Positions 15,280 to 33,827 of a stretch of 64,000 nucleotides of DNA are shown here, piece by piece. Position 1 is the stretch's first letter. The number at the start of each line of letters is the position of its first letter. The notes under the pieces were generated by a model. It searched no databases and had not been told where the DNA came from. It saw only the letters and a list, made by a program, of their open reading frames with translations. The position numbers were made by a program, and so were the translations under genes. This DNA comes from Ostreococcus lucimarinus (lineage: Eukaryota): assembly GCA_000092065.1 (NCBI GenBank), contig CP000581.1; one strand, given 5' to 3'.

Positions 15280-18200
15280 TTACTTGTCCTCGTTCGACAT
15301 GTCGAGGAGCTGCGTGAAATAATCCACCGCGCTGGCTGCGGTTTTCTTCGTTTCGTTGGTGTTTGTCTTGCGCGTGATGACGCTGCGCAGGGATGAAATG
15401 GTCATCGATTTGACGACGTCTTCGGCTTCGACGTCTTGAACCGAAATACCCATGGACTCGGCGTATTTGGATTTGAGATCGTCGAGTTCGCCGGCCACTT
15501 TTTTGGACTCTTCGAGAACCTTGAGTTCTTCATCGCTCAGGTTCACAAAGTCGCGGAGACGCTTTTTGGCCTCGTCGAGGGAAACGCGGAGGCGCTTGAT
15601 CTCCACGGCGTACTCATCGCGTTCGGTTGCCGTCTGCTCAAACGAACGTTCGAGCGCAAGTCTGTCGGCCTCGAGCTGCTTTTCTCGATCGGAGACGCTA
15701 AGCCTGAGGCTCTTTTCGGCTTTAGACTTTTCTTCCGCGACGATTTTGAGCGCTTTTTCGCGACTCGCTTTGAGCGCCGCGTCCTTCGCCGCGATGGTGT
15801 CTCTCAGTCGTGCCTCGTACGATTCGCGAAGCTTGGCGATATCGATCTCGCTTCGCTCGCGAAGTTCCTTGAGACTCGCTTGAGTTTTGGCTATCTCTTC
15901 GGCGTAAGCGTCAGCGTCGCCACGTCTGCCGGTCGAGGTCGCAACTTCCTTCTCAACAATCTTTTCAACCTCAACAATCTTCTCGACGACCTTCTCGACT
16001 ATTTGCGGCGGTCCGCCTGTTTGCCCGGCGCGCTTTTCCGCGTCGCGCACAGCCCGTTGAAGCGTTTCAACTTCTTGACGGAAGTCTACGACTAGCTTAT
16101 CAAACTGCGCGTTGAATTTGGCTTCAATTTCCAGATCACGATCGTTGAGCATGTTTTCAAAGTTGGCAATTTTGGCCTTGAGTTTATCATTCGCCTTCTT
16201 CGCCGTCGCACGAAGCGCCGCTTCAGATTTTGAGCGTTCGGCGGCGGCGATGGCCAATTGATCGCGCAACGCCTTCTTCGCTGTGGTTTCCGCCTCTCTC
16301 AGAGCCGCGATATATTCACGCTGTGCCGCGAGCTTGGCACTCTCGGTGAGCTTCTTTGCCGCCGCGATTTCAGTGCGCAAAGTCTTTTCCATACGGTCGC
16401 GCTCCGCCTTCGCAGCTTCCATCGCGGACGCCAACTTCTGGTTCGCAATCTTCTCAGAGTTTGCGAGCTGATTTTCGAGTGTAGAAACTTTGGATTCCAA
16501 AGCCTTAAGCTTTGATTCGGATTCGATGCGCATTGCTTTCTCTACCGCCTCGATTTCAGCCTTTTGTGCCGTCTTAAATTCGCTCAGTTTCTTCACGGCG
16601 GCTTCAAGATCACGCTCGAGCGTCGCAACCTTGCTAGGCGATTGAGCGGGCTTGCTCTTCTGTATGACTGACTCCGTCGGTGTAGACGCGTTCGTCTCCT
16701 TCATCGAGCGATTCGACGCGCCGAAGAGACGTTCAAAGAGCGAAGGCGCGGAAGTCTTCGCCGCTTCTTCAGCCGCCAACGCCGCTTCTTCAGCCGCCAA
16801 CGCCGCATCTTCCTTCGCTTTCGTAGCTTCTTCCTTCGCTGCAAGCAACTGATCGCGCAAAGTAACCATTTCACTTTGCGCCGCACGAAGCTTACGCTCG
16901 GCGTCTTCGCGCGCGGCTCGTTCAGCTGCAACCTTGCCTTTGTTGAATTCAAAGAGAGGGCGCTGAACGGAGGTTTCCGATACCACCTTCGATGACGAAG
17001 ATTGCTTCTTTGCGACATCGAGTTCATCAGTGAGTGCACCAACGCGTTGCTCATAAAAGGCGATCTTCTCTGCGAGAGTTACTTGCTCGGATTTCAATCT
17101 TCGCTCGAAGTCTTCCTTCATCAAAAGCATCGAACGGGACCATTTCGCCTCCGCTTCGGCAAACTCGGCCTGAACACTCGCAAGTCGATACTGGACATTC
17201 TCCATTTTCTTCGCCTGTTCCGCATAATCCCTGTGCGCACGTCTGATTTGCTTCTCAAGTTCGCGTTCGCGTGACTTGAGTTGCTTGTTCATTAGCTGCG
17301 CCGAGTCTCGTACGCGTTCTTTGAAGTCTTCGCGCAACGCGGCGAGAAGAACTTCAACCTCTCGCGTGTGCTCCTTGCTTTCTTGAATCTTTTGGTTGAA
17401 TTCTAAAGTAGCATCAGCCATTGTTTGAGCGACAGCGCGAACGATCTCGTCATTGTGCTTTTCCTTCATCGCGTTCATTTCAGAAATTCTAGAACCCAAC
17501 ATCGCCTGACTATTTTGATACTTGACCAAAATATCTGCTCGTTCGGATTCAAGACTGCGCACATTCGCTTCGTCGGCCTGAACACTCGCAAGTCGATACT
17601 GGACATTCTCCATTTTCTTCGCCTGTTCCGCATAATCCCTGTGCGCACGTCTGATTTGCTTCTCAAGTTCGCGTTCGCGTGACTTGAGTTGCTTGTTCAT
17701 TAGCTGCGCCGAGTCTCGCACGCGTTCTTTGAAGTCTTCGCGCAACGCGGCGAGAAGAACTTCAACCTCTCGCGTGTGCTCCTTGCTTTCTTGAATCTTT
17801 TGGTTGAATTCTAAAGTAGCATCAGCCGTTGTTTGAGCGACAGCGCGAACGATCTCGTCATTGTGCTTTTCCTTCATCGCGTTCATTTCAGAAATTCTAG
17901 AACCCAACATCGCCTGACTATTTTGATACTTGACCAAAATATCTGCTCGTTCGGATTCAAGACTGCGCACATTCGCTTCGTACGACTTTGCTTGATCTTT
18001 CCAAGCAACGGAGTCGAATTGCCATGCGTCACGTTCTTGCTCCAACTTGGCCATTTTACGAAGCATTTGTGCGACGGCAGCAGTCATCTCGTCATCCTCA
18101 TCAAACGACGCCGAGGCGTTTTCGGTAAGTCGCGCCAAATCGAGCGCATACTTTGTCTCTGCGTCGGCAACCGCACGTTCTCGCTCTTCGTTCAGGCGCG

Positions 18201-21200
18201 CCACGGTTACCGCGAGCTGTTCTTGAGCATCAGCTTGGAGCTTGGCGATGGCTGCGACGGTATCATCGCCGCTTTTAAGCTTGGACTCAAGCTCGGAGAT
18301 GCGTTGCTTGTACTCTTTGACAGTGGTTTCACTCTCGGCGGCAAAAGTAGAAGATGCGTTACTGACGGCGTCCTTCAACTCTGCTTTGAGTGCCGCGATT
18401 TCATTCGCTGAAGCTGAACTTTTTTGTTCAAACTCCAATGTCAGACGCGATATTTCCTCACGAAGCTTGACTTCGCGCTCTTGCGCATCGCGTGCTTCAG
18501 TCTCTGCAGCTGATAACAGCACAGTTTGATCTTTGATCTGAGCATTTACAGCATCAAGGGACGCGTCCTGTCCCTGGGAAGCGCCGATGATGCTAGCAAA
18601 AATTCCACCTCGATCGCCTTTCGCCTTGTCCAAAACAGCCTTGTATTTCTCTTCAGCCTTTTGCATGCCCTTGCGAGCTTTTTCTAGTTCCTTTTCTAGT
18701 CGTCGCTCGGAATCCAGCTTCTCAGACTGTAGTCTTGTCGTGACCGATAGCACATCTTGATCACGCTCAGCGCGGACGGCTTTGATTTGCGCTTCCAAGT
18801 CGAAGATATGCTTTTCCACGTCCGGGCTGCTCCTCTTAGCTTGCGTAGCGAACTCCGCTTCAAGTTTCTCAAGCTTTTCTTGAAGCGCGTCGCGCTGCTT
18901 CTTGAGACGCTTGACTTCGCCAGTGCTTCCCTCGAACTTGTACGTGACAGATTGGGGAAGGGTGTACTTAACTACACTCTTCTCACGCTTTTGCTGTTGT
19001 TTGCGTTTAAACGCATCCAACTCCTTGCGAGCCTCAGTGACTTCAAGCCTGAGCTCTGCTTCCGTCTCCGTCGCCGTGCGCTTGAGAGTCTTATTGAGCT
19101 TCTTTATCGTCGATTCGTAACCTTCGGAAACCTCTTCTAGTTGAAGTTCCAGTCGCTTGACTGTCGCCTCGTACTCCGCGGCGATTTCATCAGCCTGTAT
19201 CTTCGCAGACCTCTCAACTTCTTCGAGTTTTGCTTTCCACAAGTCCTCAGCTTGCTTTACCTTTGTAGTTTCATCGCTCGCGAGAGAAGTTTTCATGGCG
19301 TTTTGCAGGGTCTCGATCTCGAGAGTCTGAGCCGTGATCAGCGCCTCTTTTTCTTCTTGGAAGAGCTTTGACTCCTGCGATACGCGGTCATCCGCTTCCG
19401 ACTTGACCAAAGCAACCAACGCTACTCGATCAGCCTCCGCTGACGCCTGAATTTCAGCGACGGCTTGGATAAGCTCTCGTTCGGCGCTTTCGTTGGCATC
19501 GGCGAGTTGCTTCTTCAGAGCTGCAACTTGGTCATCAATCGTAGCGGTCTCTGTGTCCGTTTTCGACGTCGATTTCATGTTCGCGATAGTTTGCTCGTAG
19601 AGCCGCTTGGACTTTTGCATCTCGTCAAGTTGGGATTCAAGGCGTGTGACTTGCGCTTGAAGCGCGTCGCGCTCCTTCTCTAGCGATGCATCTACCTTGT
19701 TGCCAGTAAACTTATATGTCACTGTTTGAGGCAGCGTGTACTTGATGCCACCCTTACTTTTTTGCTTGAGGTCTTCGAGGTCCTTTTTCGTCGATTCGAC
19801 TCGTTTTCTAAGTTCACTTTCGCTAGACTTAGATGCTGCGAGCTGCGCTTTAATTTTCTTCATCTCATCGTCGTCACTCGACACCCACGCAGTAGAAGAT
19901 TGAAGCGCATCAATTTTACCTTGATACTCTTGCTTCAACCGATCAATCTGTGCATCCTTGGCTGCTTCGACCTCACGAATCTTCTGTTCCCAGAAAATAG
20001 ATGATTGAGCCTCGGCAGTGGCTACCTCAGCCGTGAACTCAACCATAGCGTCTGCGGACTGTTTTATCGCTTCGTTTCGCATCATCGCATACAGCGCGCG
20101 GCGCTCGCCAGCGCTTGAACGAGACGAAGCGTCGCGTTGCGCCAGCTCGGAAGACGCAAAGGCCTGAATACTAGCGACGGCCTCGACGAGATGCTCCTCG
20201 GCGATGGCTTTTTGCTCTTGCAAACGCCACGACTGCTCAGACAGCTGCTTCTTGAGATCCAGGATCATGGCATCCTTCGCCGCTGACTCGTCGCTCCCAG
20301 CGGTCGTCGCCGCGGGCACGGCGGGCGCCGCGCGTGCAGACGCCTTGAGTGACTCAATCTTCGCGTCATACTCTCGCTTGGTCTTCTGCATTTCCGTCAG
20401 CTGCGACTCGAGCGCGCTGATCTTGGCCTGCTGAGCCTTCATCAGCTTGTCGTCCGTGGAACCGCCCTCGAATGTGTACTTGATAAACTGCGGAAGTGTG
20501 TACTTCACACCGTTCTTCGACGCAGTCTTGAGCGACTGAAGTTCGGCTTTCGCCGCGTCGACTTGACCTCGGAGTTCGAGTTCGATCGACGAGCGCTTGG
20601 AGAGCTGCGCCTGCAGGTCGGACACGACGCTCGAGAGACCATCACTACCAGACGCCTTGGACATTGATGCCTTGAGCTCCTCGAGTTCACGCAGCGATGC
20701 GTCGAGCTGCGCCTTCTCGGCCGCCGCCGCCGCTTGCAGCTTGGCATTATCAGCGAGGATCGTCGCGACAGCCGCCTCAACTTGCTCTTCGGCATCGTTT
20801 TCGGCATCCTGCAGCTTCTTGTTGAGGGCGTCGATTTCGGCGCTTCTGTCAGAAACACCGGTCGTAGTGCTCGCCTTACTGGCCGCCCGGACTCGTTCGA
20901 TCTCTTCGTTGTGTGCCTTCTTCAGAGCAACCACGCGCTGCTCAAACTGAATCTGCGCGTCACGAATGGCGTCGTTCACTTGAGCGCTCGTGTCCACAGG
21001 TGAACCGGACGACGCGCGCAATGACGCCTCCAGCTGTTCGTTCTCAGCCTTGAGCTCAGCGACGGCCTCGACGAGCTGCTCCTCGGCGATGGCTTTTTGC
21101 TCTTGCAAACGCCACGACTGCTCAGACAGCTGCTTCTTGAGATCCAGGATCATGGCATCCTTCGCCGCTGACTCGTCGCTCCCAGCGGTCGTCGCCGCGG

Positions 21201-24200
21201 GCACGGCGGGCGCCGCGCGTGCAGACGCCTTGAGTGACTCAATCTTCGCGTCATACTCTCGCTTGGTCTTCTGCATTTCCGTCAGCTGCGACTCGAGCGC
21301 GCTGATCTTGGCCTGCTGAGCCTTCATCAGCTTGTCGTCCGTGGAACCGCCCTCGAATGTGTACTTGATAAACTGCGGAAGTGTGTACTTCACACCGTTC
21401 TTCGACGCAGTCTTGAGCGACTGAAGTTCGGCTTTCGCCGCGTCGACTTGACCTCGGAGTTCGAGTTCGATCGACGAGCGCTTGGAGAGCTGCGCCTGCA
21501 GGTCGGACACGACGCTCGAGAGACCATCACTACCAGACGCCTTGGACATTGATGCCTTGAGCTCCTCGAGTTCACGCAGCGATGCGTCGAGCTGCGCCTT
21601 CTCGGCCGCCGCCGCCGCTTGCAGCTTGGCATTATCAGCGAGGATCGTCGCGACAGCCGCCTCAACTTGCTCTTCGGCATCGTTTTCGGCATCCTGCAGC
21701 TTCTTGTTGAGGGCGTCGATTTCGGCGCTTCTGTCAGAAACACCGGTCGTAGTGCTCGCCTTACTGGCCGCCCGGACTCGTTCGATCTCTTCGTTGTGTG
21801 CCTTCTTCAGAGCAACCACGCGCTGCTCAAACTGAATCTGCGCGTCACGAATGGCGTCGTTCACTTGAGCGCTCGTGTCCACAGGTGAACCGGACGACGC
21901 GCGCAATGACGCCTCCAGCTGTTCGTTCTCAGCCTTGAGCTCAGCGACGGCCTCGACGAGCTGCTCCTCGGCGATGGCTTTTTGCTCTTGCAAACGCCAC
22001 GACTGCTCAGACAGCTGCTTCTTGAGATCCAGGATCATGGCATCCTTCGCCGCTGACTCGTCGCTCCCAGCGGTCGTCGCCGCGGGCACGGCGGGCGCCG
22101 CGCGTGCAGACGCCTTGAGTGACTCAATCTTCGCGTCATACTCTCGCTTGGTCTTCTGCATTTCCGTCAGCTGCGACTCGAGCGCGCTGATCTTGGCCTC
22201 TAGCGCGTTAACATTCGCAGTGTTTTCCGGTGTTTTTCTAGACGTGTCTTCGAATTTGTAAGTAATGCTTTCCGGCGAAGTGTACTTGACGGTCTGCTGT
22301 GCGGATGCTATCTGATTTCGGAGATCACGCTCAACTTCGGTTCGCTCGCGCAGCTGCCGCTGGAGCTCCGTAATCTCCGCCGACACGTCCACGCCCGGTG
22401 TGTCTGATTTGATTAAAGCCTTCAGCTCTTCGAGCTCGCACAGGGACGCGTCGAGCTGCGACTTTGCAGCGTCAACCGCGGCTTGCAGCCGGTCTTTATC
22501 AGCAACGATTTCCGCTACCGCGCGCTTTACTGCCTCTTCGCGTTCTTTTTGCGCATCTTCCAACTGCTTATTGAGCGCGGCGACCTGCGCGTCCACATCT
22601 TTGCTACTACTCGAGCTGGATGAGGCTTGTAAATCCGCAATCTTTTGTTCGTACGACTGCCTGAGCTGCTTCAGCTGTGCATCCTTCATGAGCTCAACGT
22701 CCTTGATCTTTTTCTCCCAGTATGCAGGAGATTCCACAGCGTGGGTGCTGGCCTTACTGGCCGCCCGGACTCGTTCGATCTCTTCGTTGTGCGCCTTCTT
22801 CAGAGCAACCACGCGCTGCTCAAACTGAATCTGCGCGTCACGAATGGCGTCGTTCAGCTGAACTCTTGCTTCGGCAGTTGAGCTGGACGATGCGCGCAAT
22901 GAAGCCTCCAGCTGTTCGTTCTCAGCCTTGAGCTCAGCGACGGCCTCGACGAGCTGCTCCTCGGCAATTGCCATGTTCTCAGACAGCTGCTTCTTGAGAT
23001 CTATGATTTCTTCGTTAGCGTCAAACTGGTTCAATCTCTTAACCGCCTCGGCGCGCATCATTTTGTACATCGCGTTACGTTCTCCAGTTGTGGATTTAAG
23101 AGCTGACTCGAGTTGTACCTTGCTAGCTTCAGCAAGCGACTGGATTTCAGCAACCGCTCGAACGAGCATATCATCATACATCTCCTTGAGCGTAGTTACA
23201 TCCTGTTTTACCGCGTCCTGCTCTGAAGCAAGATTCGATTTAACGTTGATGCGCTCGGCTTCAAACTGTGCGAGAAGCTGAGCTTTTGACGCTTCACTCT
23301 CGTTCAACTTGGAGATAGCGTCACGTGCGCGATCCTCCGCTTGCGTGACTCTTCTATCCGACTCTCTACGTGCGTCTTCTAATGCTGTCGCGTGAGCAGC
23401 GGCTGTAGTCTGTATCGCCATCTGATGCGCCTGTTCGAGGGCTTTTATTTTGGCTGGTGCGTCATCCTTCGTCGCGCTCCTTTTAAGGCGCTCTAGCTCT
23501 TCGTTGTGCGCCTTCTTCAGAGCAACCACACGCTGCTCAAACTGGATCTGCGCGTCACGAATGGCGTCGTTCATCTTCTTGCTACTCGAAACTTCGCTTA
23601 TGGCAACTTCACTTTGAAGCCGCGTCAAAGTTCGCTCGCTCGCTTTGCGCATCTCAGAGTCGAACATCGACTTGAGCGCACGACGCTCGCCCGCAACTCC
23701 ACGCACAGCTTCGTCACGAACTGCGTCAACGTCCACGTCGTTTCGCATTTCGACCGGAGATACCGCGACCTGAGATTTCTTTGAAACCTTGACTCGTTCG
23801 ATCTCTTCGTTGTGCGCCTTCTTCAGAGCAACCACGCGCTGCTCAAAGTTAAGCTGCTCCTCACGGAGTGCCGCGTTAAATTGATCGACGCTCAGCGCGC
23901 TCTGGCTCGGCTTTGAGGCGTTACTCGCCTTGACTCGTTCGATCTCTTCGTTGTGCGCCTTCTTCAGAGCAACCACGCGCTGCTCAAAGTTAAGCTGCTC
24001 CTCACGGAGTGCCGCGTTAAATTGATCGACGCTCAGCGCGCTCTGGCTCGGCTTTGAGGCGTTACTCGCCTTGACTCGTTCGATCTCTTCGTTGTGCGCC
24101 TTCTTCAGAGCAACCACGCGCTGCTCAAATTTAAGCTGCTCCTCACGGAGTGCCGCGTTGAATTGATCGACGCTCAGCGCGCTCTGGCTCGGCTTTGAGG

Positions 24201-26307
24201 CGTTACTCGCCTTGACTCGTTCGATCTCTTCGCTGTGCGCCTTCTTCAGAGCAACCACGCGCTGTTCAAACTGGATCTGCGCGTCACGAATGGCATCGTT
24301 CGCTTGAGCGCTTACATCGACAACCGATGTGACTGGATCGGCGCGCTCAACTGGAGCGCCGCGCTCGATGTTGCGTCCAGGACTGGCCTTGTTCATCTCC
24401 GAATCAAGAAGCGCCTTTAGCGCTCGTCGCTCCCCAGCGGCACCGCGCATCGCGCTGTCGTACTTGGCCACGAGAGAGCTAATTTCAACTTCAGCCTCGG
24501 CACGTATTTCGGCAATCTTCGAAAGGAACTCGTCCTGAGTCGTCGAGTCACTGTCTTGAATCAGTCCCGCCACCGGCTCCCGTACTTTTGAGAGCGTGGC
24601 GGCAAAATCGGCCCGCTCTTTCACAATTCTCTCGCTATAAGACGCACAAATCGCTTTCAGTTGATCTTCGAGGAATGACAGGCGTTCTCCAGAGGTGACC
24701 TTCGCAAGAGCCAATTCTGACCGAAGCGTCGCCAGGTGCATGCGCTGCAGGTCACGTGATGCGCGATACTTGCTTGCTTCACTTCTTCCAAGTTCGCGTT
24801 CAGCGCGAATCAAGCCACGCGCGGCTCTAATTTCGATTTCATGACGCGTCGCCATAGATTTGTTCACCTCTTTCGCTTCGTGCAAAGCATCCTCAGCAAT
24901 ATTCAGCGCTTTCTCAAGCCTCTCGATGCTGCCCTTCAGCGTAACCTCTTGCGCGTGGAAGGCAGCTTCGTTTGCTTTGATGGCGGTTTCGTGCTCCTCT
25001 TTCATCTTTACGAGCACACGTTGAAGTTCTTCGGTGCTTTGTCCTCCCGCGCCGGCGCTTGAAAGCGAATCGATTTGCACATCCTTCATGTGGCGCTTGA
25101 AGTCGTCGTTCAGAGTCTTGAGGTTATCATTCTTCTCCTTCTTCATGGCGCCGAGCTTTTCGATTTCGGTTTCAAACTCCAGAATCATTGACTGCCGCAG
25201 TACTTCTAAGCGTCGCACCGCGCTACTATCGCTTTCCAAAGGCTGAGCAAGACTGGGCAAACGTTCCAATTTGGATCGCACTTTTTGCACGTCAACGCCA
25301 GAGCGAGAGATACCGAAGCCGATTGCCGCAGCGGCAACTGCAGCCGCAGACGCGATACCAGCTACCGCAGCGGTTTTTGCAACGACTGGCGGAAGCGCAT
25401 TATTGTGACGCAAAGTCATCGAGGTCGCATTTACCGCTGGTAAATTTTGAGCGAACGGGGCGACTGTTGCCGTTTTCACCACATTTTTTGGACGCTCAGC
25501 CACGATCGAGGTCGTCACCTGCGGCACAGTCGGCGACGCCGCGCGCCGATCGGCTGAAAAACTGTGTTTACCTCCGATAAGAGCCACGGCCGTCGCGATA
25601 CCACCGTAAATGAGCTTGGTCTCGGTATCGAATCTCTCAGTCGCGCGCATCATCGTCGTCGCGAGGGATGTCTGTTGTATTTTTTTCCGCACGATGGACG
25701 TCGTTTCTACCGTCTTCTTCACAATACTCGTCGTGGCCTTCATCCCAAGCGCCACGACTTCGTTCGCATCGCTCGATCGTTCGCATCGTTCGCATCGTTC
25801 GCATCGTTCGCATCGCTCGCATCCCTCGCCATCCTCATCGTCGTGCTCGTGCTCGTGCGATTCTTCGTACTCTTCGTACGCCTCGTCCGACATCCACGAG
25901 AACGACGCGAACCCGGGCGCGCTGTCGAACCCAGCCATACCAACTCTCCCCGCCCCCGGTCGCCGAACTTCACGCTCTTCGTCCTCGTCTTCCGCGCCCC
26001 CCCCGACCTCGAGCTCGAGCACTATCTCGTCCACGAGCTTGTATCCGCGAAAACTCGCCGTCCCGACGCCGTTTTCAAACATCGCGCGTCCGATCTCTCC
26101 CGGCTCGTCCCCTCGTCCCGCGCACGTCACCACGCGCCCGACTCGCATCGACGCCCTCCCGCGCGCGCTCGCCCGCGCGTCGCTCGCGCTCGCCCCTCGC
26201 GTCGCGTCGCCGCGCCGCTTCCCTCCCTCTCGCGTCGTCTCCCGCCGCCCCAGCGCGAGCGCGCCGCGCGCGCGCGTCGACATCACCCCGCGATCGACGA
26301 TCGCCAT
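15280..26307 (-). CDS. giant (3675 aa) coiled-coil protein with internal tandem repeats; function unknown
   Basis: Single uninterrupted 11-kb ORF. The composition is heptad-like, rich in E/K/A/L/Q. There are several families of exact in-frame DNA repeats. The non-coiled motif VKYTLPQ(F/T/S)(I/V)xYxFEG recurs 5 times. The N-terminus has HEHEHDDEDGEG-CERCERCERCERCER. The C-terminus is ...DYFTQLLDMSNEDK. Confidence 0.8.
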   Translation of the reverse strand: MAIVDRGVMSTRARGALALGRRETTREGGKRRGDATRGASASDARASARGRASMRVGRVVTCAGRGDEPGEIGRAMFENGVGTASFRGYKLVDEIVLELEVGGGAEDEDEEREVRRPGAGRVGMAGFDSAPGFASFSWMSDEAYEEYEESHEHEHDDEDGEGCERCERCERCERCERSSDANEVVALGMKATTSIVKKTVETTSIVRKKIQQTSLATTMMRATERFDTETKLIYGGIATAVALIGGKHSFSADRRAASPTVPQVTTSIVAERPKNVVKTATVAPFAQNLPAVNATSMTLRHNNALPPVVAKTAAVAGIASAAAVAAAAIGFGISRSGVDVQKVRSKLERLPSLAQPLESDSSAVRRLEVLRQSMILEFETEIEKLGAMKKEKNDNLKTLNDDFKRHMKDVQIDSLSSAGAGGQSTEELQRVLVKMKEEHETAIKANEAAFHAQEVTLKGSIERLEKALNIAEDALHEAKEVNKSMATRHEIEIRAARGLIRAERELGRSEASKYRASRDLQRMHLATLRSELALAKVTSGERLSFLEDQLKAICASYSERIVKERADFAATLSKVREPVAGLIQDSDSTTQDEFLSKIAEIRAEAEVEISSLVAKYDSAMRGAAGERRALKALLDSEMNKASPGRNIERGAPVERADPVTSVVDVSAQANDAIRDAQIQFEQRVVALKKAHSEEIERVKASNASKPSQSALSVDQFNAALREEQLKFEQRVVALKKAHNEEIERVKASNASKPSQSALSVDQFNAALREEQLNFEQRVVALKKAHNEEIERVKASNASKPSQSALSVDQFNAALREEQLNFEQRVVALKKAHNEEIERVKVSKKSQVAVSPVEMRNDVDVDAVRDEAVRGVAGERRALKSMFDSEMRKASERTLTRLQSEVAISEVSSSKKMNDAIRDAQIQFEQRVVALKKAHNEELERLKRSATKDDAPAKIKALEQAHQMAIQTTAAAHATALEDARRESDRRVTQAEDRARDAISKLNESEASKAQLLAQFEAERINVKSNLASEQDAVKQDVTTLKEMYDDMLVRAVAEIQSLAEASKVQLESALKSTTGERNAMYKMMRAEAVKRLNQFDANEEIIDLKKQLSENMAIAEEQLVEAVAELKAENEQLEASLRASSSSTAEARVQLNDAIRDAQIQFEQRVVALKKAHNEEIERVRAASKASTHAVESPAYWEKKIKDVELMKDAQLKQLRQSYEQKIADLQASSSSSSSKDVDAQVAALNKQLEDAQKEREEAVKRAVAEIVADKDRLQAAVDAAKSQLDASLCELEELKALIKSDTPGVDVSAEITELQRQLRERTEVERDLRNQIASAQQTVKYTSPESITYKFEDTSRKTPENTANVNALEAKISALESQLTEMQKTKREYDAKIESLKASARAAPAVPAATTAGSDESAAKDAMILDLKKQLSEQSWRLQEQKAIAEEQLVEAVAELKAENEQLEASLRASSGSPVDTSAQVNDAIRDAQIQFEQRVVALKKAHNEEIERVRAASKASTTTGVSDRSAEIDALNKKLQDAENDAEEQVEAAVATILADNAKLQAAAAAEKAQLDASLRELEELKASMSKASGSDGLSSVVSDLQAQLSKRSSIELELRGQVDAAKAELQSLKTASKNGVKYTLPQFIKYTFEGGSTDDKLMKAQQAKISALESQLTEMQKTKREYDAKIESLKASARAAPAVPAATTAGSDESAAKDAMILDLKKQLSEQSWRLQEQKAIAEEQLVEAVAELKAENEQLEASLRASSGSPVDTSAQVNDAIRDAQIQFEQRVVALKKAHNEEIERVRAASKASTTTGVSDRSAEIDALNKKLQDAENDAEEQVEAAVATILADNAKLQAAAAAEKAQLDASLRELEELKASMSKASGSDGLSSVVSDLQAQLSKRSSIELELRGQVDAAKAELQSLKTASKNGVKYTLPQFIKYTFEGGSTDDKLMKAQQAKISALESQLTEMQKTKREYDAKIESLKASARAAPAVPAATTAGSDESAAKDAMILDLKKQLSEQSWRLQEQKAIAEEHLVEAVASIQAFASSELAQRDASSRSSAGERRALYAMMRNEAIKQSADAMVEFTAEVATAEAQSSIFWEQKIREVEAAKDAQIDRLKQEYQGKIDALQSSTAWVSSDDDEMKKIKAQLAASKSSESELRKRVESTKKDLEDLKQKSKGGIKYTLPQTVTYKFTGNKVDASLEKERDALQAQVTRLESQLDEMQKSKRLYEQTIANMKSTSKTDTETATIDDQVAALKKQLADANESAERELIQAVAEIQASAEADRVALVALVKSEADDRVSQESKLFQEEKEALITAQTLEIETLQNAMKTSLASDETTKVKQAEDLWKAKLEEVERSAKIQADEIAAEYEATVKRLELQLEEVSEGYESTIKKLNKTLKRTATETEAELRLEVTEARKELDAFKRKQQQKREKSVVKYTLPQSVTYKFEGSTGEVKRLKKQRDALQEKLEKLEAEFATQAKRSSPDVEKHIFDLEAQIKAVRAERDQDVLSVTTRLQSEKLDSERRLEKELEKARKGMQKAEEKYKAVLDKAKGDRGGIFASIIGASQGQDASLDAVNAQIKDQTVLLSAAETEARDAQEREVKLREEISRLTLEFEQKSSASANEIAALKAELKDAVSNASSTFAAESETTVKEYKQRISELESKLKSGDDTVAAIAKLQADAQEQLAVTVARLNEERERAVADAETKYALDLARLTENASASFDEDDEMTAAVAQMLRKMAKLEQERDAWQFDSVAWKDQAKSYEANVRSLESERADILVKYQNSQAMLGSRISEMNAMKEKHNDEIVRAVAQTTADATLEFNQKIQESKEHTREVEVLLAALREDFKERVRDSAQLMNKQLKSRERELEKQIRRAHRDYAEQAKKMENVQYRLASVQADEANVRSLESERADILVKYQNSQAMLGSRISEMNAMKEKHNDEIVRAVAQTMADATLEFNQKIQESKEHTREVEVLLAALREDFKERVRDSAQLMNKQLKSRERELEKQIRRAHRDYAEQAKKMENVQYRLASVQAEFAEAEAKWSRSMLLMKEDFERRLKSEQVTLAEKIAFYEQRVGALTDELDVAKKQSSSSKVVSETSVQRPLFEFNKGKVAAERAAREDAERKLRAAQSEMVTLRDQLLAAKEEATKAKEDAALAAEEAALAAEEAAKTSAPSLFERLFGASNRSMKETNASTPTESVIQKSKPAQSPSKVATLERDLEAAVKKLSEFKTAQKAEIEAVEKAMRIESESKLKALESKVSTLENQLANSEKIANQKLASAMEAAKAERDRMEKTLRTEIAAAKKLTESAKLAAQREYIAALREAETTAKKALRDQLAIAAAERSKSEAALRATAKKANDKLKAKIANFENMLNDRDLEIEAKFNAQFDKLVVDFRQEVETLQRAVRDAEKRAGQTGGPPQIVEKVVEKIVEVEKIVEKEVATSTGRRGDADAYAEEIAKTQASLKELRERSEIDIAKLRESYEARLRDTIAAKDAALKASREKALKIVAEEKSKAEKSLRLSVSDREKQLEADRLALERSFEQTATERDEYAVEIKRLRVSLDEAKKRLRDFVNLSDEELKVLEESKKVAGELDDLKSKYAESMGISVQDVEAEDVVKSMTISSLRSVITRKTNTNETKKTAASAVDYFTQLLDMSNEDK
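17165..17980. repeat. 408-bp (136-aa) tandem duplication, 2 copies, ~99% identical, in frame inside the giant gene
   Basis: Copy 1 starts at 17165 and copy 2 at 17573, with 2-3 mismatches. Duplicated ORFs appear in the track at 17002/17425 and 17425/17833. Confidence 0.85.
20175..22199. repeat. 885-bp (295-aa) tandem repeat, 2.3 copies, ~100% identical, in frame inside the giant gene
   Basis: Copies start at about 20175, 21060 and 21945. Identical six-frame ORFs are offset by exactly 885 bp (20505/21390, 20597/21482, 20734/21619, 20990/21875). Confidence 0.9.
23789..24290. repeat. 141-bp (47-aa) tandem repeat, ~3.5 copies, inside the giant gene
   Basis: The unit ttgactcgttcgatctcttcgttgtgcgcc... 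recurs at 23789, 23930, 24071 and 24212. It encodes KASNASKPSQSALSVDQFNAALREEQL(K/N)FEQRVVALKKAHNEEIERV. Confidence 0.85.
25760..25825. repeat. 9-bp coding microsatellite (cgttcgcat)n encoding (Cys-Glu-Arg)5 on the minus strand
   Basis: cgttcgcat x5 read directly from the sequence. On the gene strand it gives GEGCERCERCERCERCERSS near the N-terminus of the giant protein. Confidence 0.85.
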
Positions 26308-26797: not shown

Positions 26798-29110
26798 ATG
26801 GCGACGACGACGACGATGCGCGTCGCGGACGCGAGAGGCGCGATGACGCGAGGCGGCGCGCGATGCGCGCGACGCGCGACGGCGCGACGCGCGACGCGCG
26901 CGACGGCGCGACGCGCGACGGTGGCGAACGCGGGGCAGACGATGTACGATAAAATCATCGACGACCACCGCGTGCGAACGCAGGACGACGGGACGCTGCT
27001 GCTGTACATCGATCGACACATGATACACGAGGTGACGTCGCCGCAAGCGTTCGAGGGGCTGCGAACGGCGGGACGGGCGGTGCGACGACCGGATAACACG
27101 CTGGCGACGGTGGATCACAACGTGCCCACGAGCGACCGGAGCGGGTTCGAGAGCGCGGAGACGTTCATCAAGGAGATGGACTCTCGCGTGCAGGTGTTGC
27201 AGCTGGAGGAGAACGTGGAGGAGTTTGGGGTGACGTATTTCGGGATGGACGATAAGAGACAGGGGATCGTGCACATCATCGGACCGGAACAGGGGTTCAC
27301 GCTGCCGGGGACGACGGTGGTGTGCGGGGACTCGCACACGGCGACGCACGGCGCGTTCGGGGCGCTGGCGTTCGGAATCGGGACGAGCGAGGTCGAACAC
27401 GTGCTCGCGACGCAGACGTTGTTGCAAAAGCCGTCGAAGAATATGCGAATCACGATCGATGGGAAGCTCGGAGATGGGGTGACGAGTAAGGATATTATTT
27501 TGCACATCATCGGCGTCATCGGCACGGCGGGCGGAAACGGCTCCGTGATTGAATTCGCGGGCGAAGCCATTCGCTCGCTCTCCATGGAGGCGCGAATGAG
27601 TATTTGTAACATGGCCATTGAAGGTGGGGCGCGCGCGGGTATGATTGCCCCGGATGAGATCACGTTCGAGTACCTCAAGGGTCGTCCGATGTCGCCTCGA
27701 GGGGAGACGTGGAATCGCGCGGTCGAGTACTGGAAGTCTCTCGCCTCCGACGCGGATTCCAAGTACGATCGCGAGATCGTTATTCCGGCGTCCGATATCG
27801 AACCCACGGTGACTTGGGGGACGTCCCCGCAAGATGTCGTTGGGATTTCGGGCATCGTTCCCGATCCGAAGGACTTCGACGAGGCGCGCGGCAAGTCGAT
27901 GCAACGCGCGCTCGATTACATGGGTCTGACCCCGGGCACTAAGATGCAAGATGTCGTCGTCGACAAGGTGTTCGTCGGCTCGTGCACGAACGGTCGCATC
28001 GAAGACGTGCGCGCGGTCGCCGCGGTGGCCAAAGGTAGAAAGGTTGCCGACAACGTGTACGCCATGGTCGTCCCGGGTTCGGGCATCGTCAAGGAGCAAG
28101 CCGAAGCCGAAGGCTTGGACGTCATCCTCAAGGAAGCTGGCTTCGACTGGCGCGAGCCCGGTTGCTCGATGTGTTTGGCAATGAACCCGGATAAGTTGCT
28201 TCCGGGCGAACGCTGCGCGTCAACCTCCAACCGTAACTTTGAAGGTCGTCAAGGCAACGGCGGTCGCACGCACTTGATGTCGCCGGCGATGGCTGCCGCC
28301 GCGGCCATCACGGGTAAGCTTTGCGACGTCCGCACCCTCGGCTCTGGCGCTGTCTTGACCGGCGAAGATGCTCCGGGTAAGCTCGAAAGCAAGGACTTCT
28401 TATCGGACGCCTTGGTCACTTCCCCGCCGCCGCAAAAGAAGGACAACGGTCCGGCGGGCGCGGGCGGCATGGCCAAGTTTACCACCTTGAAGGGTGTAGC
28501 CGCGGCCATGGAACTTCAGAACATCGACACCGATATGATCATCCCCAAGCAATTCTTGAAGACGATCAAGCGCACCGGCCTCGGAGTCTCTGCGTTTTAC
28601 GAAATGCGTTACGACGAGCAAGGCGTCGAACGCCCGGATTTCGTGTTGAACAACGAGCCGTACCGCAACGCCTCCATTTTGGTCGCCGGTAACAATTTTG
28701 GTTGCGGGTCTTCTCGTGAGCACGCGCCGTGGGCGATTAATGACTTCGGCATTCGATGCATCATCTCCACCGCCTTTGCCGACATCTTCTTCAACAACTG
28801 CTTCAAGAACGCCATGTTGCCAATCGTTCTCGACGAAGCCACCGTGAACACGCTCATGGCGGACGCCAACGCCAAGCAAGAGCTCGAAATCGACTTGCCG
28901 AACCAAGTCGTCATTCGATCAAACGGCGAGAAGATTCCATTCGAAGTCGACGAGTTCCGCAAGCACTGCTTGATCAACGGCTTGGACGACATCGGCTTGA
29001 CGATGCAGCAAGACGCCGACATCGCCGCGTTCGAGGCCAAGCGCACCGAAAACTTCCCGTGGCTCAACGGCGCCGGCTACGTCCAAGGCAGCGCCACCCC
29101 GGCGCGTTAA
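26798..29110 (+). CDS. 3-isopropylmalate dehydratase, fused large (LeuC) and small (LeuD) subunits, with an N-terminal presequence
   Basis: LeuC region: [11 protein letters not shown]...[18 protein letters not shown] and the aconitase-family Cys ligands (VCGDSHT, GSCTNGR, GCSMCL). LeuD-like C-terminal domain: [21 protein letters not shown]. The conserved core starts at ATG 26942. The preceding 48 codons (Arg/Ala/Thr-rich) look like an organellar transit peptide. Confidence 0.9.
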
Positions 29111-29240
29111 TACCACGCACGTCGAAACTTTAGCACAACCACACGATTGCAACGATCACGTATTACCACTATCGACGCGCGTCTCCGCCGTCCGCGCTGG
29201 CCCCCTCATCCGCCACCGTCATCCGCACACCACCGCGCGT

Positions 29241-30410
29241 TTGCCCGACATGTTCCGCCGAGCCGGCGACAAATTTGCCGCGCGAACCGCGCGCGCGACG
29301 TTCGCGCTCTTCGGCGACGTCACCGCGTCCACGCGCGTTCCGCGCGCGTCGTCTCGCGCGCGACGGTTCGCCCAACCGTCAGCCATCGCCATCGCGCGCG
29401 AATTCGCCGACGACGCGCACAATCGCGTGCGCTACCCTTCGCCCGAGGTGAAGATCGGCCAGCCCGCGCCGCAGTTCGATTCTCCCGCGTGCGTCGACGG
29501 CGATCTCGGCCGGGTGAAGCTGAGCGATTACCTCGGGAAGTATTGCGTGGTGTTCTTCTACCCGCTCGACTTTACGTTTGTGTGCCCGACGGAGATCACG
29601 GCGTTTAACGATCGCGCGGATGAATTCGAAGCGCTGAACACGAAAGTGATAGCGGTGTCGACGGATAGTGAGTACTCGCACTTGGCGTGGACGATGATGG
29701 AACGCGAACGAGGCGGTTTGGGGGCGATGCGGATACCGATCGTGAGCGACCGGACGAAGGAGATCAGCGCCAAGTACGGAGTGCTGTTCGAAGACCGAGG
29801 AATTGCGCTGAGAGGGCTGTTTATCATCGACGACGAGGGGATCGTGCAGCAGATCACGATGAATAACTTGCCCGTGGGGCGGAGCGTGGACGAGACGCTG
29901 CGGCTCGTGCGAGCGTTTCAGTACACGGCGGAACACGGCGAGGTGTGTCCGGCGGGATGGACGCCCGGTGCGCCCACGATGATCGATGATCCTGAAAAGT
30001 CCAAGACGTATTTCGAGCAACACGCTGGCGCGCCAAGTGGGGGATCGTCTTCAAGCGGCGGTTCGTCGAACGGCGATTTCGCCGCCAAGCTCACGCCCAT
30101 CGCGTCGCGCGCAGACTTCAACGCCTTGATCGCTGGACCCAAGCCAGTCGTCGTTGATTTCATGGCGAGCTGGTGCGGCAAGTGTCGACAAATCGCCCCG
30201 GAGGTCGACAAGCTCATCGATCAGTACCCGGATGTCGTCTTCGCGAAATTCGACACGGCGCACGCGGATTTGGCGCCTCTCTCCAAGGAGTTGGGCATCG
30301 AGGCCATGCCGACTTTCAAGTTTTACAAGGACGGCAAAGAAGTCAACGAAGTGATCGGTTACAAGCCTAAGCTCTTGCGCGACGCCGTTGTTGATTTCGC
30401 GGGCCATTGA
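29241..30410 (+). CDS. typical 2-Cys peroxiredoxin fused to a C-terminal thioredoxin domain, with an N-terminal presequence
   Basis: Peroxidatic Cys in [14 protein letters not shown] and resolving Cys in GEVCPAGW. A Gly/Ser linker ([16 protein letters not shown]) follows, then a thioredoxin fold with WCGKC active site ([20 protein letters not shown]...[11 protein letters not shown]). The ~60-aa N-terminal extension is Arg/Ala-rich. Confidence 0.85.
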
Positions 30411-30440
30411 GACAATTATTTTACAAAACAGTTCCTATCG

Positions 30441-31613
30441 CTAAACGCGCGCTTTTGATTCCACCTCCACCGTGCTTCCATTCGTCGCCCGTGTGTGCTT
30501 GATGACCACACTTTCACCACGCTCGCGCGCTACTCTGACGTTCATCCAAATCTCGAATGCGAGTGCGAGGCGACGTTGCGTCGGCGCGTCGCGTTCCGCC
30601 CGAGCTGGATCTACTCTAACGATCTCGTCGACGTCGCACTGTTCGTGGATAAACGATTTAATGCTCGCAAAAACGTCGCCATCGCGTGGAAACGCACAAA
30701 TCATCGTGTCGAACACGAATCTGTAGTACGACCACAGCGCCTCGTGTCCCGGGTATTGGCGTATGAGGTGACGCGACAATTCGTCTTCATAGAGTACAAT
30801 CGAACGACGATCCGCCGGCCGCGCGCCCAACGCGCGCTTGACGATGTGCGACCGGTAGTGCAACGCGCAATGATCGCTCACGCTCGTTCGCACGCGGCGT
30901 TCGTTTTCACAGAGCTCTTGATCTAACAACTCCCGACGGTTCGGCAAAAGGCGCCGCAGCGCCCACGCGCGATGCGACCACGCCGCGTAATTCAATCTCT
31001 TCTTCAACACCGCCGCGTCGCACGCCCGGCACTCTTCTCGAAACGTTTCTAGCGCCCACGCGTCCTTTTTCGACCCATCACCAATCACCGCCGCGCGCGC
31101 GGCGTCGATCACCCATCGCCGGTGCGCCCAAGCGCTCGGCGCCTTTGGAAATCGACTCTGCACCGCGCGCGCAAACGCCAACTCATCGCGCGCGCCTTCC
31201 ACCAATCCGTCCCGCTCGCGCGCGCTCATCTTCTCGACGCCGTCGAATCGCGCCTTCATCGTTCTCTTTCGCGCGTTCCACGCCGTGGCGTGATCGCCGT
31301 TCGCGCACAGCGCCGTCGCCGCCGCGTCGAAATCCGCGTCGTCGTCGTCGCCCTCCCATCGCCTCGCCGACGCCTCGCGCACGCCCACGACGGCGTCGTG
31401 CGACATCACCAGCGCGTCGCCGCACGCGTAAAACGCGTCCGGCATTCGCGACGCGTTCTCGTCGCCTCGCGTCGTTCCGAACAGCGCCGCTCGCGACACG
31501 TCCGGCGCGTGTTCGACGCTCCGCACCGCGCGCGTCCCGCTCGCGTCGTCGCGCGCGCCGAGCAATCGATCGAGCTCGATCGCCATCGCCGTCGCGCGCG
31601 CGCTCGGCGCCAT
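30441..31613 (-). CDS. protein prenyltransferase alpha-subunit repeat (PPTA) containing protein, PTAR1-like
   Basis: Repeated W-x-x-R-x-W/ L motifs characteristic of PPTA repeats: PSAWAHRRWVI, NYAAWSHRAWAL and ALWSYYRFV. Confidence 0.5.
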   Translation of the reverse strand: MAPSARATAMAIELDRLLGARDDASGTRAVRSVEHAPDVSRAALFGTTRGDENASRMPDAFYACGDALVMSHDAVVGVREASARRWEGDDDDADFDAAATALCANGDHATAWNARKRTMKARFDGVEKMSARERDGLVEGARDELAFARAVQSRFPKAPSAWAHRRWVIDAARAAVIGDGSKKDAWALETFREECRACDAAVLKKRLNYAAWSHRAWALRRLLPNRRELLDQELCENERRVRTSVSDHCALHYRSHIVKRALGARPADRRSIVLYEDELSRHLIRQYPGHEALWSYYRFVFDTMICAFPRDGDVFASIKSFIHEQCDVDEIVRVDPARAERDAPTQRRLALAFEIWMNVRVARERGESVVIKHTRATNGSTVEVESKARV

Positions 31614-31669
31614 CGCGCCGCGCCGCGCGCCGCGCGGTGCCGCACATCGCGCCCGGCCGGGCCGGCGCG

Positions 31670-32599
31670 ATGCCGCGGCCGCATCGCGCGCGCGGCGTCG
31701 CGCTCGCCGCGCTGCTGACGCTCGCGCGCGCGTCGCGCGTCGCCGCCGACGTCGCGGTGCGCGACTTCGCGCAGACGGGGACGTCGTGGACGTTCCAGGG
31801 CGTCGCCGCGCCGGCCAAGTCGAGCGAGGCGAGCGACGCGCACGCGCTGCGGGTGACGCCCGCGCGCGCGAACGCGGCGGGAAGCGCGTTCGCGACGAGC
31901 AAACAGCTCGTCGGCGGTGGATTCGTGGCGGAGTTCGCGTTCGCGATCACGACGCCCGCGAACGTGGAGGTGCCGTGCGAGGGGGTGGACCACGCGCCGG
32001 CGACGTGCTCGCGAAGAGGCGGCGACGGATTGGCGTTTGTGATACAAAACGCCGATGGAAGGGCGCTGGGGGGGGGAGGAGGACAGATTGGGTACGGGGG
32101 GATCGTGAACTGCGTCGCGGTGGAGTTCGACACGTTTCACGACGCGCATTCGAGAGACCCGTATCATAACCACGTGGCGGTTATGACGCGCGGCGCGAAG
32201 GCGCCGGCGTTGGCGACGCACGACGCGGCGATCGGGACGAGCGTGACGGTGCCGAATTTATCCGACGGTGAGCGTCACGTCGTGCGCGTGGTCTACGACC
32301 CAGACTTTGTCCCCGAGGACGCGTCGCACAAGAGTTTCCGCGGCGGCGCGTACCTGCTCGATTTGATGCGCGACTACAAGCACGGTTTAGGAACGATGAA
32401 AGTCTTCATCGACGATCTCGCCGATCCCGTCTTGACGGTGCCGATCAACTTGGCCGCGTTCATGGACTTGGACAACGGTCGCGCCTGGGTCGGTTTCACC
32501 GCCGCGACCGGGCGTTCGATGCAGAACCACGACGTGCAGAGTTTTTCGTTTCGCGAGCGCGTCGGCGGCGGCTTTGTTCCCGGCGTCGCCGTCGCGTGA
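31670..32599 (+). CDS. secreted L-type (legume-like) lectin-domain protein
   Basis: Signal-peptide-like N-terminus (MPRPHRARGVALAALLTLARASRVAADVA). Legume-lectin blocks GDGLAFVIQ, GGxxGYGG, VAVEFDTFHD and GFTAATG. The upstream part of the track ORF (31145-31669) is Arg-rich antisense of the PPTA gene and is not called. Confidence 0.7.
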   Translation: MPRPHRARGVALAALLTLARASRVAADVAVRDFAQTGTSWTFQGVAAPAKSSEASDAHALRVTPARANAAGSAFATSKQLVGGGFVAEFAFAITTPANVEVPCEGVDHAPATCSRRGGDGLAFVIQNADGRALGGGGGQIGYGGIVNCVAVEFDTFHDAHSRDPYHNHVAVMTRGAKAPALATHDAAIGTSVTVPNLSDGERHVVRVVYDPDFVPEDASHKSFRGGAYLLDLMRDYKHGLGTMKVFIDDLADPVLTVPINLAAFMDLDNGRAWVGFTAATGRSMQNHDVQSFSFRERVGGGFVPGVAVA

Positions 32600-32916: not shown

Positions 32917-33585
32917 ATGGCGACGATGGCGCGCGTCGTCGCGATGGCGTTCGCGACGCTCGCGCTCGTCGCGGGCGCCGACGCGAGCGCGTTCGTCGGC
33001 ACGGACGCGAACTTCGATCGCGAGGTGATGAACTCGGGGAAACACGTCTTCGTGAAGTACCTCGCGCCGTGGTGAGGACACTGCAAGTCGATGAAACCGG
33101 CGTGGGATCGACTTGGGGCGGATTACAAGGACAGCGCGAGCGTGATGATCGTCGACGTGGATTGCACGGCGGAGGGATCTGGAACGTGCGCAAAGGTTGG
33201 AGTGAAGGGATACCCGACGATAAAGTATTACCCGGCGGGGGATAAGAAGGGTAAGGATTACCAGGGCGGACGGGATTACGACGCGTTGAAGTCGTTCGTG
33301 ACGAAGACGCTGGATAAGCCGTTGTGCGACGCGGCGACGAAGAAGGGGTGCGCGAAGAACGAAGTCGAATTCTTGAAGAAGATGGACGGTAAGTCGAAGT
33401 CTGAACTCAAAAGCGAGTTGAAGGAAAAGACTGCCGAGTTGAACGAAATCAAGAAGGAGATGAAGGCGGCGACAAAGGAGTTCAACGCGAAGACGCAAGC
33501 GTGGAAGAAGCGCCAAGCCGTCATAAACCGCGCGAACAAGCTCCTCAACGACCTCATCGCGGCGTCGGACAAGACTGAGCTTTAA
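32917..33585 (+). CDS. PDI-like thioredoxin-fold selenoprotein (in-frame TGA = Sec in the active site), signal peptide, C-terminal KTEL
   Basis: MATMARVVAMAFATLALVAGADA (signal peptide) ... GKHVFVKYLAPW-TGA-GHCKSMKPAW ... YPTIKYYPAG. The sequence matches the PDI a-domain ([20 protein letters not shown]) with TGA in place of the first Cys. The frame is continuous across 32596-33585 except for this codon. The protein ends in DKTEL, a KDEL-like ER retrieval signal. Confidence 0.65.
33073..33075 (+). other. putative selenocysteine codon (UGA) within the CxxC motif (W-U-G-H-C-K)
   Basis: TGA falls exactly where the first active-site Cys of a thioredoxin-fold CGHC motif is expected. The fold elements before and after the codon are in one frame. 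Confidence 0.6.
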
Positions 33586-33653: not shown

Positions 33654-33703
33654 GTGACGTTTCGTCTCAAAGATCGCTTTCACGCGATTGAGACGCGACT
33701 GAT
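33654..33703 (+). promoter_or_regulatory. candidate SECIS element in the 3'UTR (GUGA / 10-bp helix / AAA apical loop / UGAU)
   Basis: Folded by eye. The 5' arm is GUGAC then GUUUCGUCUC, the loop begins with AAAG, the 3' arm is GAGACGCGAC (9 of 10 pairs), followed by UGAU. It lies about 70 nt after the stop. Confidence 0.4.
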
Positions 33704-33827
33704 TTTGACAACGGAGGATGAAAAACGCTTCACCGCAACGAATAATCAAGATAAATTTTTCATGTAATGGAAAGAATCAAACAACAATCGCTTATTAGTG
33801 TGTGCCTAGAGTGACTTCGAGTGATCT

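Follow-up and report, generated by a model that had tools for sequence, protein, structure and literature searches.

The gene considered here is a nuclear gene of the prasinophyte Ostreococcus lucimarinus CCE9901, located on the plus strand of chromosome 1 within a window of 64,000 nucleotides of contig CP000581.1 (assembly GCA_000092065.1). It encodes a typical 2-Cys peroxiredoxin (Prx) fused to a thioredoxin (Trx). The gene is contained in a single open reading frame (ORF) at 29241..30410, which the ORF listing reads as 389 aa from a TTG at 29241. The ATG nearest the start of the frame is at 29250, and this is most likely the translation start rather than the TTG. From there, the product is 386 aa, ending at a TGA stop codon at 30408-30410, so that the complete fusion coding sequence (CDS), as defined by the ORF, motifs and Pfam, spans 29250..30410. 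No in-frame Met occurs between the ATG at 29250 and the peroxidatic cysteine; therefore, the N-terminal extension must be translated. The order of the product is an Arg-rich N-terminal extension, the typical 2-Cys Prx, a Gly/Ser linker and a complete Trx domain. A preliminary description made from the letters alone had proposed this single chain behind a presequence, and the ORF, motifs and Pfam agree with it. It had also named a stop codon or frameshift in the linker as fatal to the proposal; both were looked for in the ORF and in the sequence read directly, and none is present.

The segments follow one another without a break. The presequence, aa 1-55 (29250..29414), is Arg/Ala/Ser-rich and predicted to be disordered; it was placed by its composition, by a processing motif and by the predicted local distance difference test (pLDDT) of the structure model. 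Next is the predicted mature N-terminus (29415..29444), an acidic stretch with Y62-P63 (nt 29433-29438), which was placed by family conservation and pLDDT. The Prx domain occupies aa 66-257 (29445..30020), based on Pfam, Protein Data Bank (PDB) matches, Foldseek and invariant residues. The flexible Gly/Ser-rich linker, aa 258-277 (30021..30080), has low pLDDT and is unconserved in composition and length; across the family both vary, and the linkers of oomycetes are acidic. The Trx domain, aa 278-386 (30081..30407), is delimited by Pfam PF00085, yeast Trx matches and invariant residues. All three Pfam matches far exceed their gathering scores: AhpC-TSA at aa 69-201 (E 9e-44, with 148.9 bits where the cut-off is 26), 1-cysPrx_C at aa 222-256 (E 5e-13) and Thioredoxin (PF00085) at aa 286-374 (E 1e-22).

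The residues required for catalysis are in place in both halves. The peroxidatic motif FTFVCPTEI contains C112 (nt 29583-29585), which together with P105 and T109 forms the PxxxTxxC signature, and the catalytic Arg is R188. The resolving motif EVCPAGW contains C233 (nt 29946-29948), 121 residues beyond C112. The protein carries both GGLG (aa 155-158, nt 29712-29723) and YF (aa 254-255, nt 30009-30014), the two motifs of the hyperoxidation-sensitive class of eukaryotic Prx. In the Trx half, the active site WCGKC is W308-C309-G310-K311-C312 (nt 30171-30185), the cis-Pro is P354 (nt 30309-30311), and a family-specific G370-Y371-K372 is found at nt 30357-30365. In an alignment of 50 family members, the invariant residues include P105, T109, C112, R188, E231-V232-C233-P234, G155-G158 and Y254-F255 in the Prx half, and C309, K311, C312, P354 and G370-Y371-K372 in the Trx half. 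Y62 is likewise invariant, and P63 is at least 90% conserved; this YP sits just before the Prx domain. The three cysteine motifs that the preliminary description had listed were read directly, and their cysteines are invariant in the same alignment. The active site departs from the canonical WCGPC, with K311 present in 50 of 50 members. Since the Lys that replaces the canonical Pro is conserved family-wide, it is a family signature and not a local oddity. Judged by sequence, the WCGKC Trx domain appears to be a distinct subfamily, set apart from the classical WCGPC thioredoxins.

Structural comparison assigns each half to a familiar fold. PDB sequence matches of the Prx half include Prx4, Prx2 and Prx1 (E ~1e-80). 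A Foldseek search of the PDB with an AlphaFold2 model, built as a monomer from the 50-sequence alignment, returned Prx4, Prx2, PRDX3, tryparedoxin peroxidase and Arabidopsis PrxA at a target TM-score of 0.93-0.96, a root-mean-square deviation of 1.2-1.7 Å and 57-62% identity. The query TM-score is no more than 0.49; these matches cover the Prx half only, and no solved chain spanning both domains is among them. Ordinary thioredoxins match the Trx half along its whole length, the best in the PDB being yeast Trx2/Trx1 (E 4e-22). D302 aligns with the buried Asp (VVVDF) of yeast Trx2, and the cis-Pro is also aligned, whereas WCGPC is replaced by WCGKC. The model has a mean pLDDT of 84, with both domains above 90 and values of about 95 from residue 61. 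Values for residues 1-54 and 267-275 fall below about 50, the presequence ranging from below 50 to 56, and the Trx domain is modeled as alternating strands and helices. By Nei-Gojobori estimates against three relatives, the ratio of nonsynonymous to synonymous substitution rates (dN/dS) is ~0.10 for Prx, 0.03-0.07 for Trx, 0.8-1.05 for the presequence and 0.2-1.3 for the linker, these values being approximate with dS near saturation. Purifying selection acts on both the Prx and the Trx domains.

The gene appears to be transcribed as a unit. Six independent environmental contigs (L001-L006) keep the same reading frame. Two of them, L001 (1240 nt) and L006 (1231 nt), come from different Joint Genome Institute (JGI) samples and are 99.8% identical in nucleotide sequence to the window. 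Both start at window position 29239, and they end at 30478 and 30469, respectively, 59-68 nt beyond the fusion stop codon. The shared 5' end and the mRNA-like length point to assembled transcripts and suggest that these span the whole fusion. Their shared start would place a probable 5' untranslated region (UTR) and transcript start at 29239..29249, 11 nt before the ATG. Their ends indicate a probable 3' UTR at 30411..30478 that overlaps the end of a convergent prenyltransferase-alpha-repeat gene. Another contig of the same transcript-like kind, L008 (1267 nt), belongs to a relative with 82% identity. In genomic contigs of relatives with 75-82% amino acid identity, the ORF is uninterrupted and lies between the same neighbors, which are a fused LeuC-LeuD isopropylmalate dehydratase upstream and the convergent prenyltransferase-alpha-repeat gene downstream. 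Complete fused ORFs are also found in transcriptome assemblies of Mantoniella beaufortii, which belongs to the same taxonomic order as Ostreococcus, and of Chlamydomonas sp. CCMP681, Heterosigma, Acetabularia and Tribonema. The preliminary description had singled out two separate mRNAs as the outcome that would count against a fusion; the transcript-like contigs and the complete transcripts of relatives cover both domains and favor one fusion transcript.

The reference annotation gives a different picture. The RefSeq/GenBank model (XP_001415395.1 / ABO93687.1) is a 192-aa "predicted protein, partial" that corresponds to aa 66-257, the Prx core only. Both the presequence and the whole Trx domain are absent from it. 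Other public gene calls do include all 386 aa (P0121), and XP_001415395.1 is a homology-trimmed fragment of the fusion protein. Since the RefSeq model covers only the Prx core, the ORF reading of the preliminary description improves on the reference annotation, and a truncated gene model in a model picoalga, with 192 of 386 residues in RefSeq, is hereby corrected.

The family to which this protein belongs is large. A homology search of 5.8 billion proteins gave 5,391 matches at E <=1e-20, and the best 120 were examined. Nearly all of these have AhpC-TSA, 1-cysPrx_C and Thioredoxin in a protein of ~310-430 aa. At least 105 of the best 120 share the Prx-Trx order, with the Prx followed by [W/H/Y]C[G/N/S]KC, in which the Lys does not vary. 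WCGKC itself occurs in 96 of the best 120, with WCNKC, HCGKC, WCSKC and YCGKC as variants in 9. GGLG is present in all 120, and YF is present in all 105 in which the resolving-Cys motif could be anchored. Identity to named members, among them Pyramimonas, Gonium, Tetradesmus, Chlorella, Phytophthora infestans and Ectocarpus, is 47-59% over 82-99% of the query. The green-algal sources are Pyramimonas, Chlamydomonas incerta/schloesseri/eustigma, Gonium, Volvox, Tetradesmus, Raphidocelis, Polytomella, Chlorella, Micractinium, Coccomyxa, Trebouxia, Acetabularia and Mantoniella. The stramenopile sources are Phytophthora, Pythium, Plasmopara, Peronospora, Ectocarpus, Ascophyllum, Chattonella, Heterosigma and Tribonema. 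The fusion thus spans Mamiellophyceae, Pyramimonas, Chlorophyceae, Trebouxiophyceae and Ulvophyceae on one side and oomycetes, brown algae, xanthophytes and raphidophytes on the other. The Prx-Trx fusion is the rule in Chlorophyta, and it is also found in many stramenopiles.

With the Trx domain alone as the query, the 17 candidates scored were mostly fragments of the same fusion. An exhaustive representative search had multi-domain proteins resembling protein disulfide isomerase (PDI) on top, with scores adding over the repeats, and was then filtered for CGKC. The protein of interest is from the oomycete Aphanomyces invadans, XP_008874757.1 (P0354), a 142-aa stand-alone Trx. It resembles the Trx half in having APWCGKC and GYKKKP, has its own Arg-rich presequence, and differs in that no Prx is fused to it. 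It is a putative unfused "Rosetta stone" counterpart of the fusion and as such supports a dedicated organellar Prx/Trx pair. It could represent either a split or the ancestral state of the fusion. Since the Trx stands alone in this saprolegnian and is fused in the peronosporalean oomycetes, a fusion or fission event within the oomycetes is indicated.

The architecture itself is not new, having been in print since 2011. Denoeud et al. 2011 (Genome Biol 12:R29; PMC3129679) noted a 2-Cys Prx-Trx fusion with WCGKC in Blastocystis and P. infestans and predicted the Blastocystis orthologue to be in the mitochondrion-like organelle (MLO). The preliminary description had taken the architecture to be non-standard in algae, and this did not hold up, given that report and the wide occurrence in Chlorophyta and stramenopiles. 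A literature search for functional work on any naturally fused Prx-Trx found only the one-sentence mention in PMC3129679. Natural Prx-Trx fusions are not mentioned in a 2021 review of Prx (PMC8113037) or in a 2026 research paper on Prx hetero-oligomers (PMC13038412). Pitsch et al. 2010 listed a third Chlamydomonas 2-Cys Prx gene, Cr2CPC, a possible orthologue, without expressed sequence tag support and with no fusion mentioned. The O. lucimarinus protein is therefore a mis-annotated, newly recognized member of a known, widespread and apparently uncharacterized family.

The closest described relatives are the Blastocystis and P. infestans proteins (PMC3129679), which are orthologues sharing the domain order, the WCGKC and, at the N-terminus, an organellar presequence. 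With the P. infestans protein (P0087), identity is 55% over 85% of the length of the O. lucimarinus protein. They differ in that O. lucimarinus is a photosynthetic green alga, in that its linker is Gly/Ser-rich rather than acidic, and in that its Prx motif is the animal-like FYPLDFTF rather than FYPKDFTF. The mammalian mitochondrial system of PRDX3, TXN2 and TXNRD2 is similar in several respects: PRDX3 is 57-58% identical with a target TM-score of 0.93-0.94, and it has GGLG and YF and a cleavable matrix presequence. The same relay of peroxidatic cysteine, resolving cysteine, Trx and thioredoxin reductase (TrxR) would be expected in the O. lucimarinus fusion. In mammals, Prx and Trx are separate and the Trx has WCGPC, whereas in O. 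lucimarinus there is one chain with WCGKC. NTRC, in which an NADPH-thioredoxin reductase is fused to Trx, and AhpF, which act on 2-Cys Prx and AhpC as reductants, likewise have a relay shortened by fusion, with a Trx module tethered to its partner, except that in those proteins the Trx is on the reductase, whereas in O. lucimarinus it is on the peroxidase and a separate reductase is still needed. PGdx, found in Haemophilus influenzae and related bacteria, is a natural fusion in which a Prx5-type peroxidase has its own reductant, a glutathione-dependent glutaredoxin, C-terminal to it. With Prx5 and glutaredoxin in place of a Prx1-type domain and a PF00085 Trx, it is only an analogue.

The N-terminal extension bears on the compartment. 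The first 40 aa of the O. lucimarinus protein include 10 basic and 2 acidic residues, and a putative processing site follows at R53-E54-F55↓A56. At the same place, the sequences of its five nearest relatives in the Mamiellales read RAF↓S, RAY↓A, RAF↓A, RAY↓A and RHY↓M. The mitochondrial processing peptidase has R-x-[F/Y/L]-[A/S] as its classical R-3 site. In all 50 aligned members, including those of the plastid-less oomycetes, there is an extension of 35-114 aa that is basic and nearly free of acidic residues. R-x-[FYL]-[AS] occurs within the 35 residues before the YP in 30 of the 50, compared with 3.4±1.7 in shuffled sequences (maximum 10 in 1,000), an enrichment of ~9-fold. The composition changes around the site from 14% basic and 2% acidic before it to 33% acidic after it. 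The R-x-F↓A site, the orthologues in organisms without plastids, the presequence of XP_008874757.1 and the MLO prediction for Blastocystis together favor the mitochondrion over the plastid as the probable location. The mitochondria of Ostreococcus would then probably have a peroxidase of the animal-like PRDX3 type, in contrast to those of land plants, which are known to rely on PrxIIF.

All residues for Prx1-type catalysis and for a dithiol Trx are present and conserved, in well-folded domains on a disordered tether. We consider this conserved eukaryotic fusion to be, on balance, a mitochondrial, self-recycling 2-Cys peroxidase with its own tethered WCGKC Trx. The precursor would be imported and its presequence removed near R53-E54-F55↓A56. 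The C112 thiolate, in a head-to-tail Prx homodimer or decamer, would then reduce H2O2 or an organic hydroperoxide and become a sulfenic acid, a step that is established chemistry of the Prx1/AhpC family. As in other members of that family, C233 of the partner subunit is expected to resolve the sulfenic acid into an intersubunit disulfide, with local unfolding of the C-terminal arm. The Trx domain lies ~45 residues beyond C233 on the same arm, and its C309 would attack the disulfide, while C312 would resolve the mixed disulfide. Tethering would regenerate the peroxidase at a very high local concentration of its reductant. We assign the recycling of the Prx to the Trx domain because the two are fused, because the fusion is conserved, and because Aphanomyces has an unfused counterpart. 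An external donor would re-reduce the oxidized Trx domain, most likely an NADPH-dependent TrxR, and it is plausible that TrxR alone is enough to complete the putative relay. The invariant K311 and the G370-Y371-K372 loop are located where thioredoxins bind substrates, and they probably tune the thiolate pKa, the redox potential or the way in which the domain docks on the C-terminal arm of the Prx. A TXNRD gene family is reported from each of the 36 algal genomes surveyed in PMC7539508, compartment aside.

Several considerations weigh against this assignment. By analogy with the CGHC of PDI, the positive residue in WCGKC may make the domain more oxidizing and a poorer reductant of the 2-Cys Prx disulfide. 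The relative orientation of Prx and Trx is not predicted by the AlphaFold2 model (pTM, the predicted TM-score, is 0.66), and the searchable literature has no enzymology or localization for any family member. The metatranscriptomic origin of the short JGI contigs is an assumption, suggested by their form, and the near-saturated dS leaves the selection estimates approximate. As to the compartment, green-algal chloroplast transit peptides resemble mitochondrial presequences. The Prx identity is also 58-59% to Arabidopsis plastid PrxA compared with 57-58% to human PRDX3.

The strongest competitor to a self-recycling peroxidase is an oxidative relay, in which the Prx half senses H2O2 and hands the oxidizing equivalent to the tethered CGKC domain, which then puts disulfides into other (mitochondrial) proteins, with client thiols, and not a TrxR, as the main source of electrons. 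There are parallels in the endoplasmic reticulum (ER), where Prx4 oxidizes CGHC domains of the PDI family, and in the chloroplast, where 2-Cys Prx oxidizes thioredoxins in the dark. The Lys found in 50 of 50 members is at the position where the His of the PDI CGHC raises the redox potential, an effect established for PDI and for the P34H mutant of E. coli Trx. Moreover, in comparisons with the Trx domain, the scores of PDI a-domains come close to those of true thioredoxins, and GGLG and YF mark the peroxide-"sensitive", signaling-prone class of Prx. Against this, the best alignments of the Trx domain, which run its full length, are with the ordinary reducing thioredoxins yeast Trx2/Trx1, and the unfused Aphanomyces protein resembles an ordinary organellar Trx. 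No client proteins are known. The electron flow from Trx to Prx is identical to that of the self-recycling peroxidase, so the data do not discriminate between the two. We regard the oxidative relay as unlikely. A broader proposition is that the CGKC Trx module is not a simple recycling reductant and instead makes the protein a self-contained mitochondrial H2O2 sensor/transducer, a peroxide-driven generator of protein disulfides or an enzyme with a donor other than TrxR; this we find rather doubtful. If it were true, the redox relay would be of a design that has not been described in any mitochondrion, and green algae and stramenopiles would share it by common descent or by an ancient transfer of the gene. 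The fusion may serve as a scaffold for peroxide sensors. A widespread, strongly conserved family whose tethered Trx has an invariant active-site Lys is a natural experiment on how fusion and the tuning of CxxC affect Prx turnover and signaling.

The preliminary description had framed the protein by comparison with BAS1 and raised a plastid location with ferredoxin-thioredoxin reductase as donor. In its full form, this would be a BAS1-like 2-Cys Prx that is targeted to the plastid, joined to a plastid Trx and recharged by ferredoxin-thioredoxin reductase or NTRC. BAS1/PrxA has the same typical 2-Cys chemistry and 58-59% identity, O. lucimarinus is photosynthetic, and a Ser/Ala/Arg-rich extension is also typical of green-algal transit peptides. 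However, BAS1 stands alone, is of cyanobacterial descent and carries a chloroplast transit peptide, whereas the O. lucimarinus Prx is fused to Trx behind a mitochondrial-type presequence and has orthologues in oomycetes and Blastocystis. Equivalent extensions are found on those orthologues, although neither group has a plastid. The R-x-F↓A followed by an acidic mature N-terminus is the pattern that the mitochondrial processing peptidase recognizes, and its enrichment across the family is strong. Among solved structures, the cytosolic-type yeast Trx2/Trx1 and reconstructed ancestral thioredoxins rank above plastid f-type Trx, if narrowly (E 4e-22 compared with 4e-20), and no m-type Trx is named among the best 60 structure matches. 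Similarity of the Prx was also tried as a test between plastid and mitochondrion and was dropped, since the identities to Arabidopsis PrxA, PRDX3 and Prx4 are all 57-62% and do not settle the compartment. Overall, the plastid version seems distinctly improbable.

That two neighboring genes, or a mistake in the assembly or the annotation, were taken for one ORF would fit the 192-aa partial Prx of RefSeq, but this is effectively refuted, with a negligible chance of being right, by one open frame with no stop across 1,158 nt, the same frame in the six environmental contigs and a fusion kept in more than 100 proteins of two eukaryotic supergroups, including complete transcripts.

The genes on either side of the Prx-Trx gene are close to it. 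Upstream at 26798-29110 (+) is the single-chain LeuC-LeuD 3-isopropylmalate dehydratase, a 770-aa ORF with Aconitase and Aconitase_C domains and an Arg/Ala-rich N-terminus; its RefSeq model has 722 aa. It adjoins the Prx-Trx gene in all relatives examined. Downstream, the convergent prenyltransferase-alpha-repeat gene has its CDS at 30441..31613 (-), with its stop codon at 30441-30443. The Prx-Trx transcript-like contigs reach 28-37 nt into this CDS (30441-30478). With the two stop codons only 30 nt apart, the 3' ends of the two mRNAs overlap.

Farther to the right, the frame at 31145-32599 (+) encodes a legume-lectin-like protein with ~170 extremely Arg/Pro/Ser-rich residues ahead of it when counted from a TTG. 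Its start is probably an internal Met before a signal-peptide-like segment, and the gene is syntenic in the locus of a relative (L007). At 32929-33585 (+) is a frame with a signal peptide, the sequence ...YLAPW-TGA-GHCKSMKPAWDRL... and a C-terminal KTEL. The in-frame TGA at 33073-33075 takes the place of the leading Cys in a WCGHC motif of the PDI type. The product is probably a PDI-like ER protein with a selenocysteine, and ORF callers break its frame into two. A hairpin resembling a form-2 selenocysteine insertion sequence (SECIS) is found at ~33654-33704 in the 3' UTR, with GUGA, a ~10-bp helix, AAA, a mini-stem and UGA; it has no Rfam match, and its fold z-score is only -0.55. Selenocysteine-containing PDI families have been described in Mamiellales (PMC7539508). 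To the left, 15280-26307 (-) holds an ORF of 3,675 aa for which Pfam gives nothing at E<=1e-6. This stretch has a GC content of ~0.51-0.60, compared with 0.60-0.68 in most of the window, and a strongly negative AT skew of ~-0.18 to -0.26.

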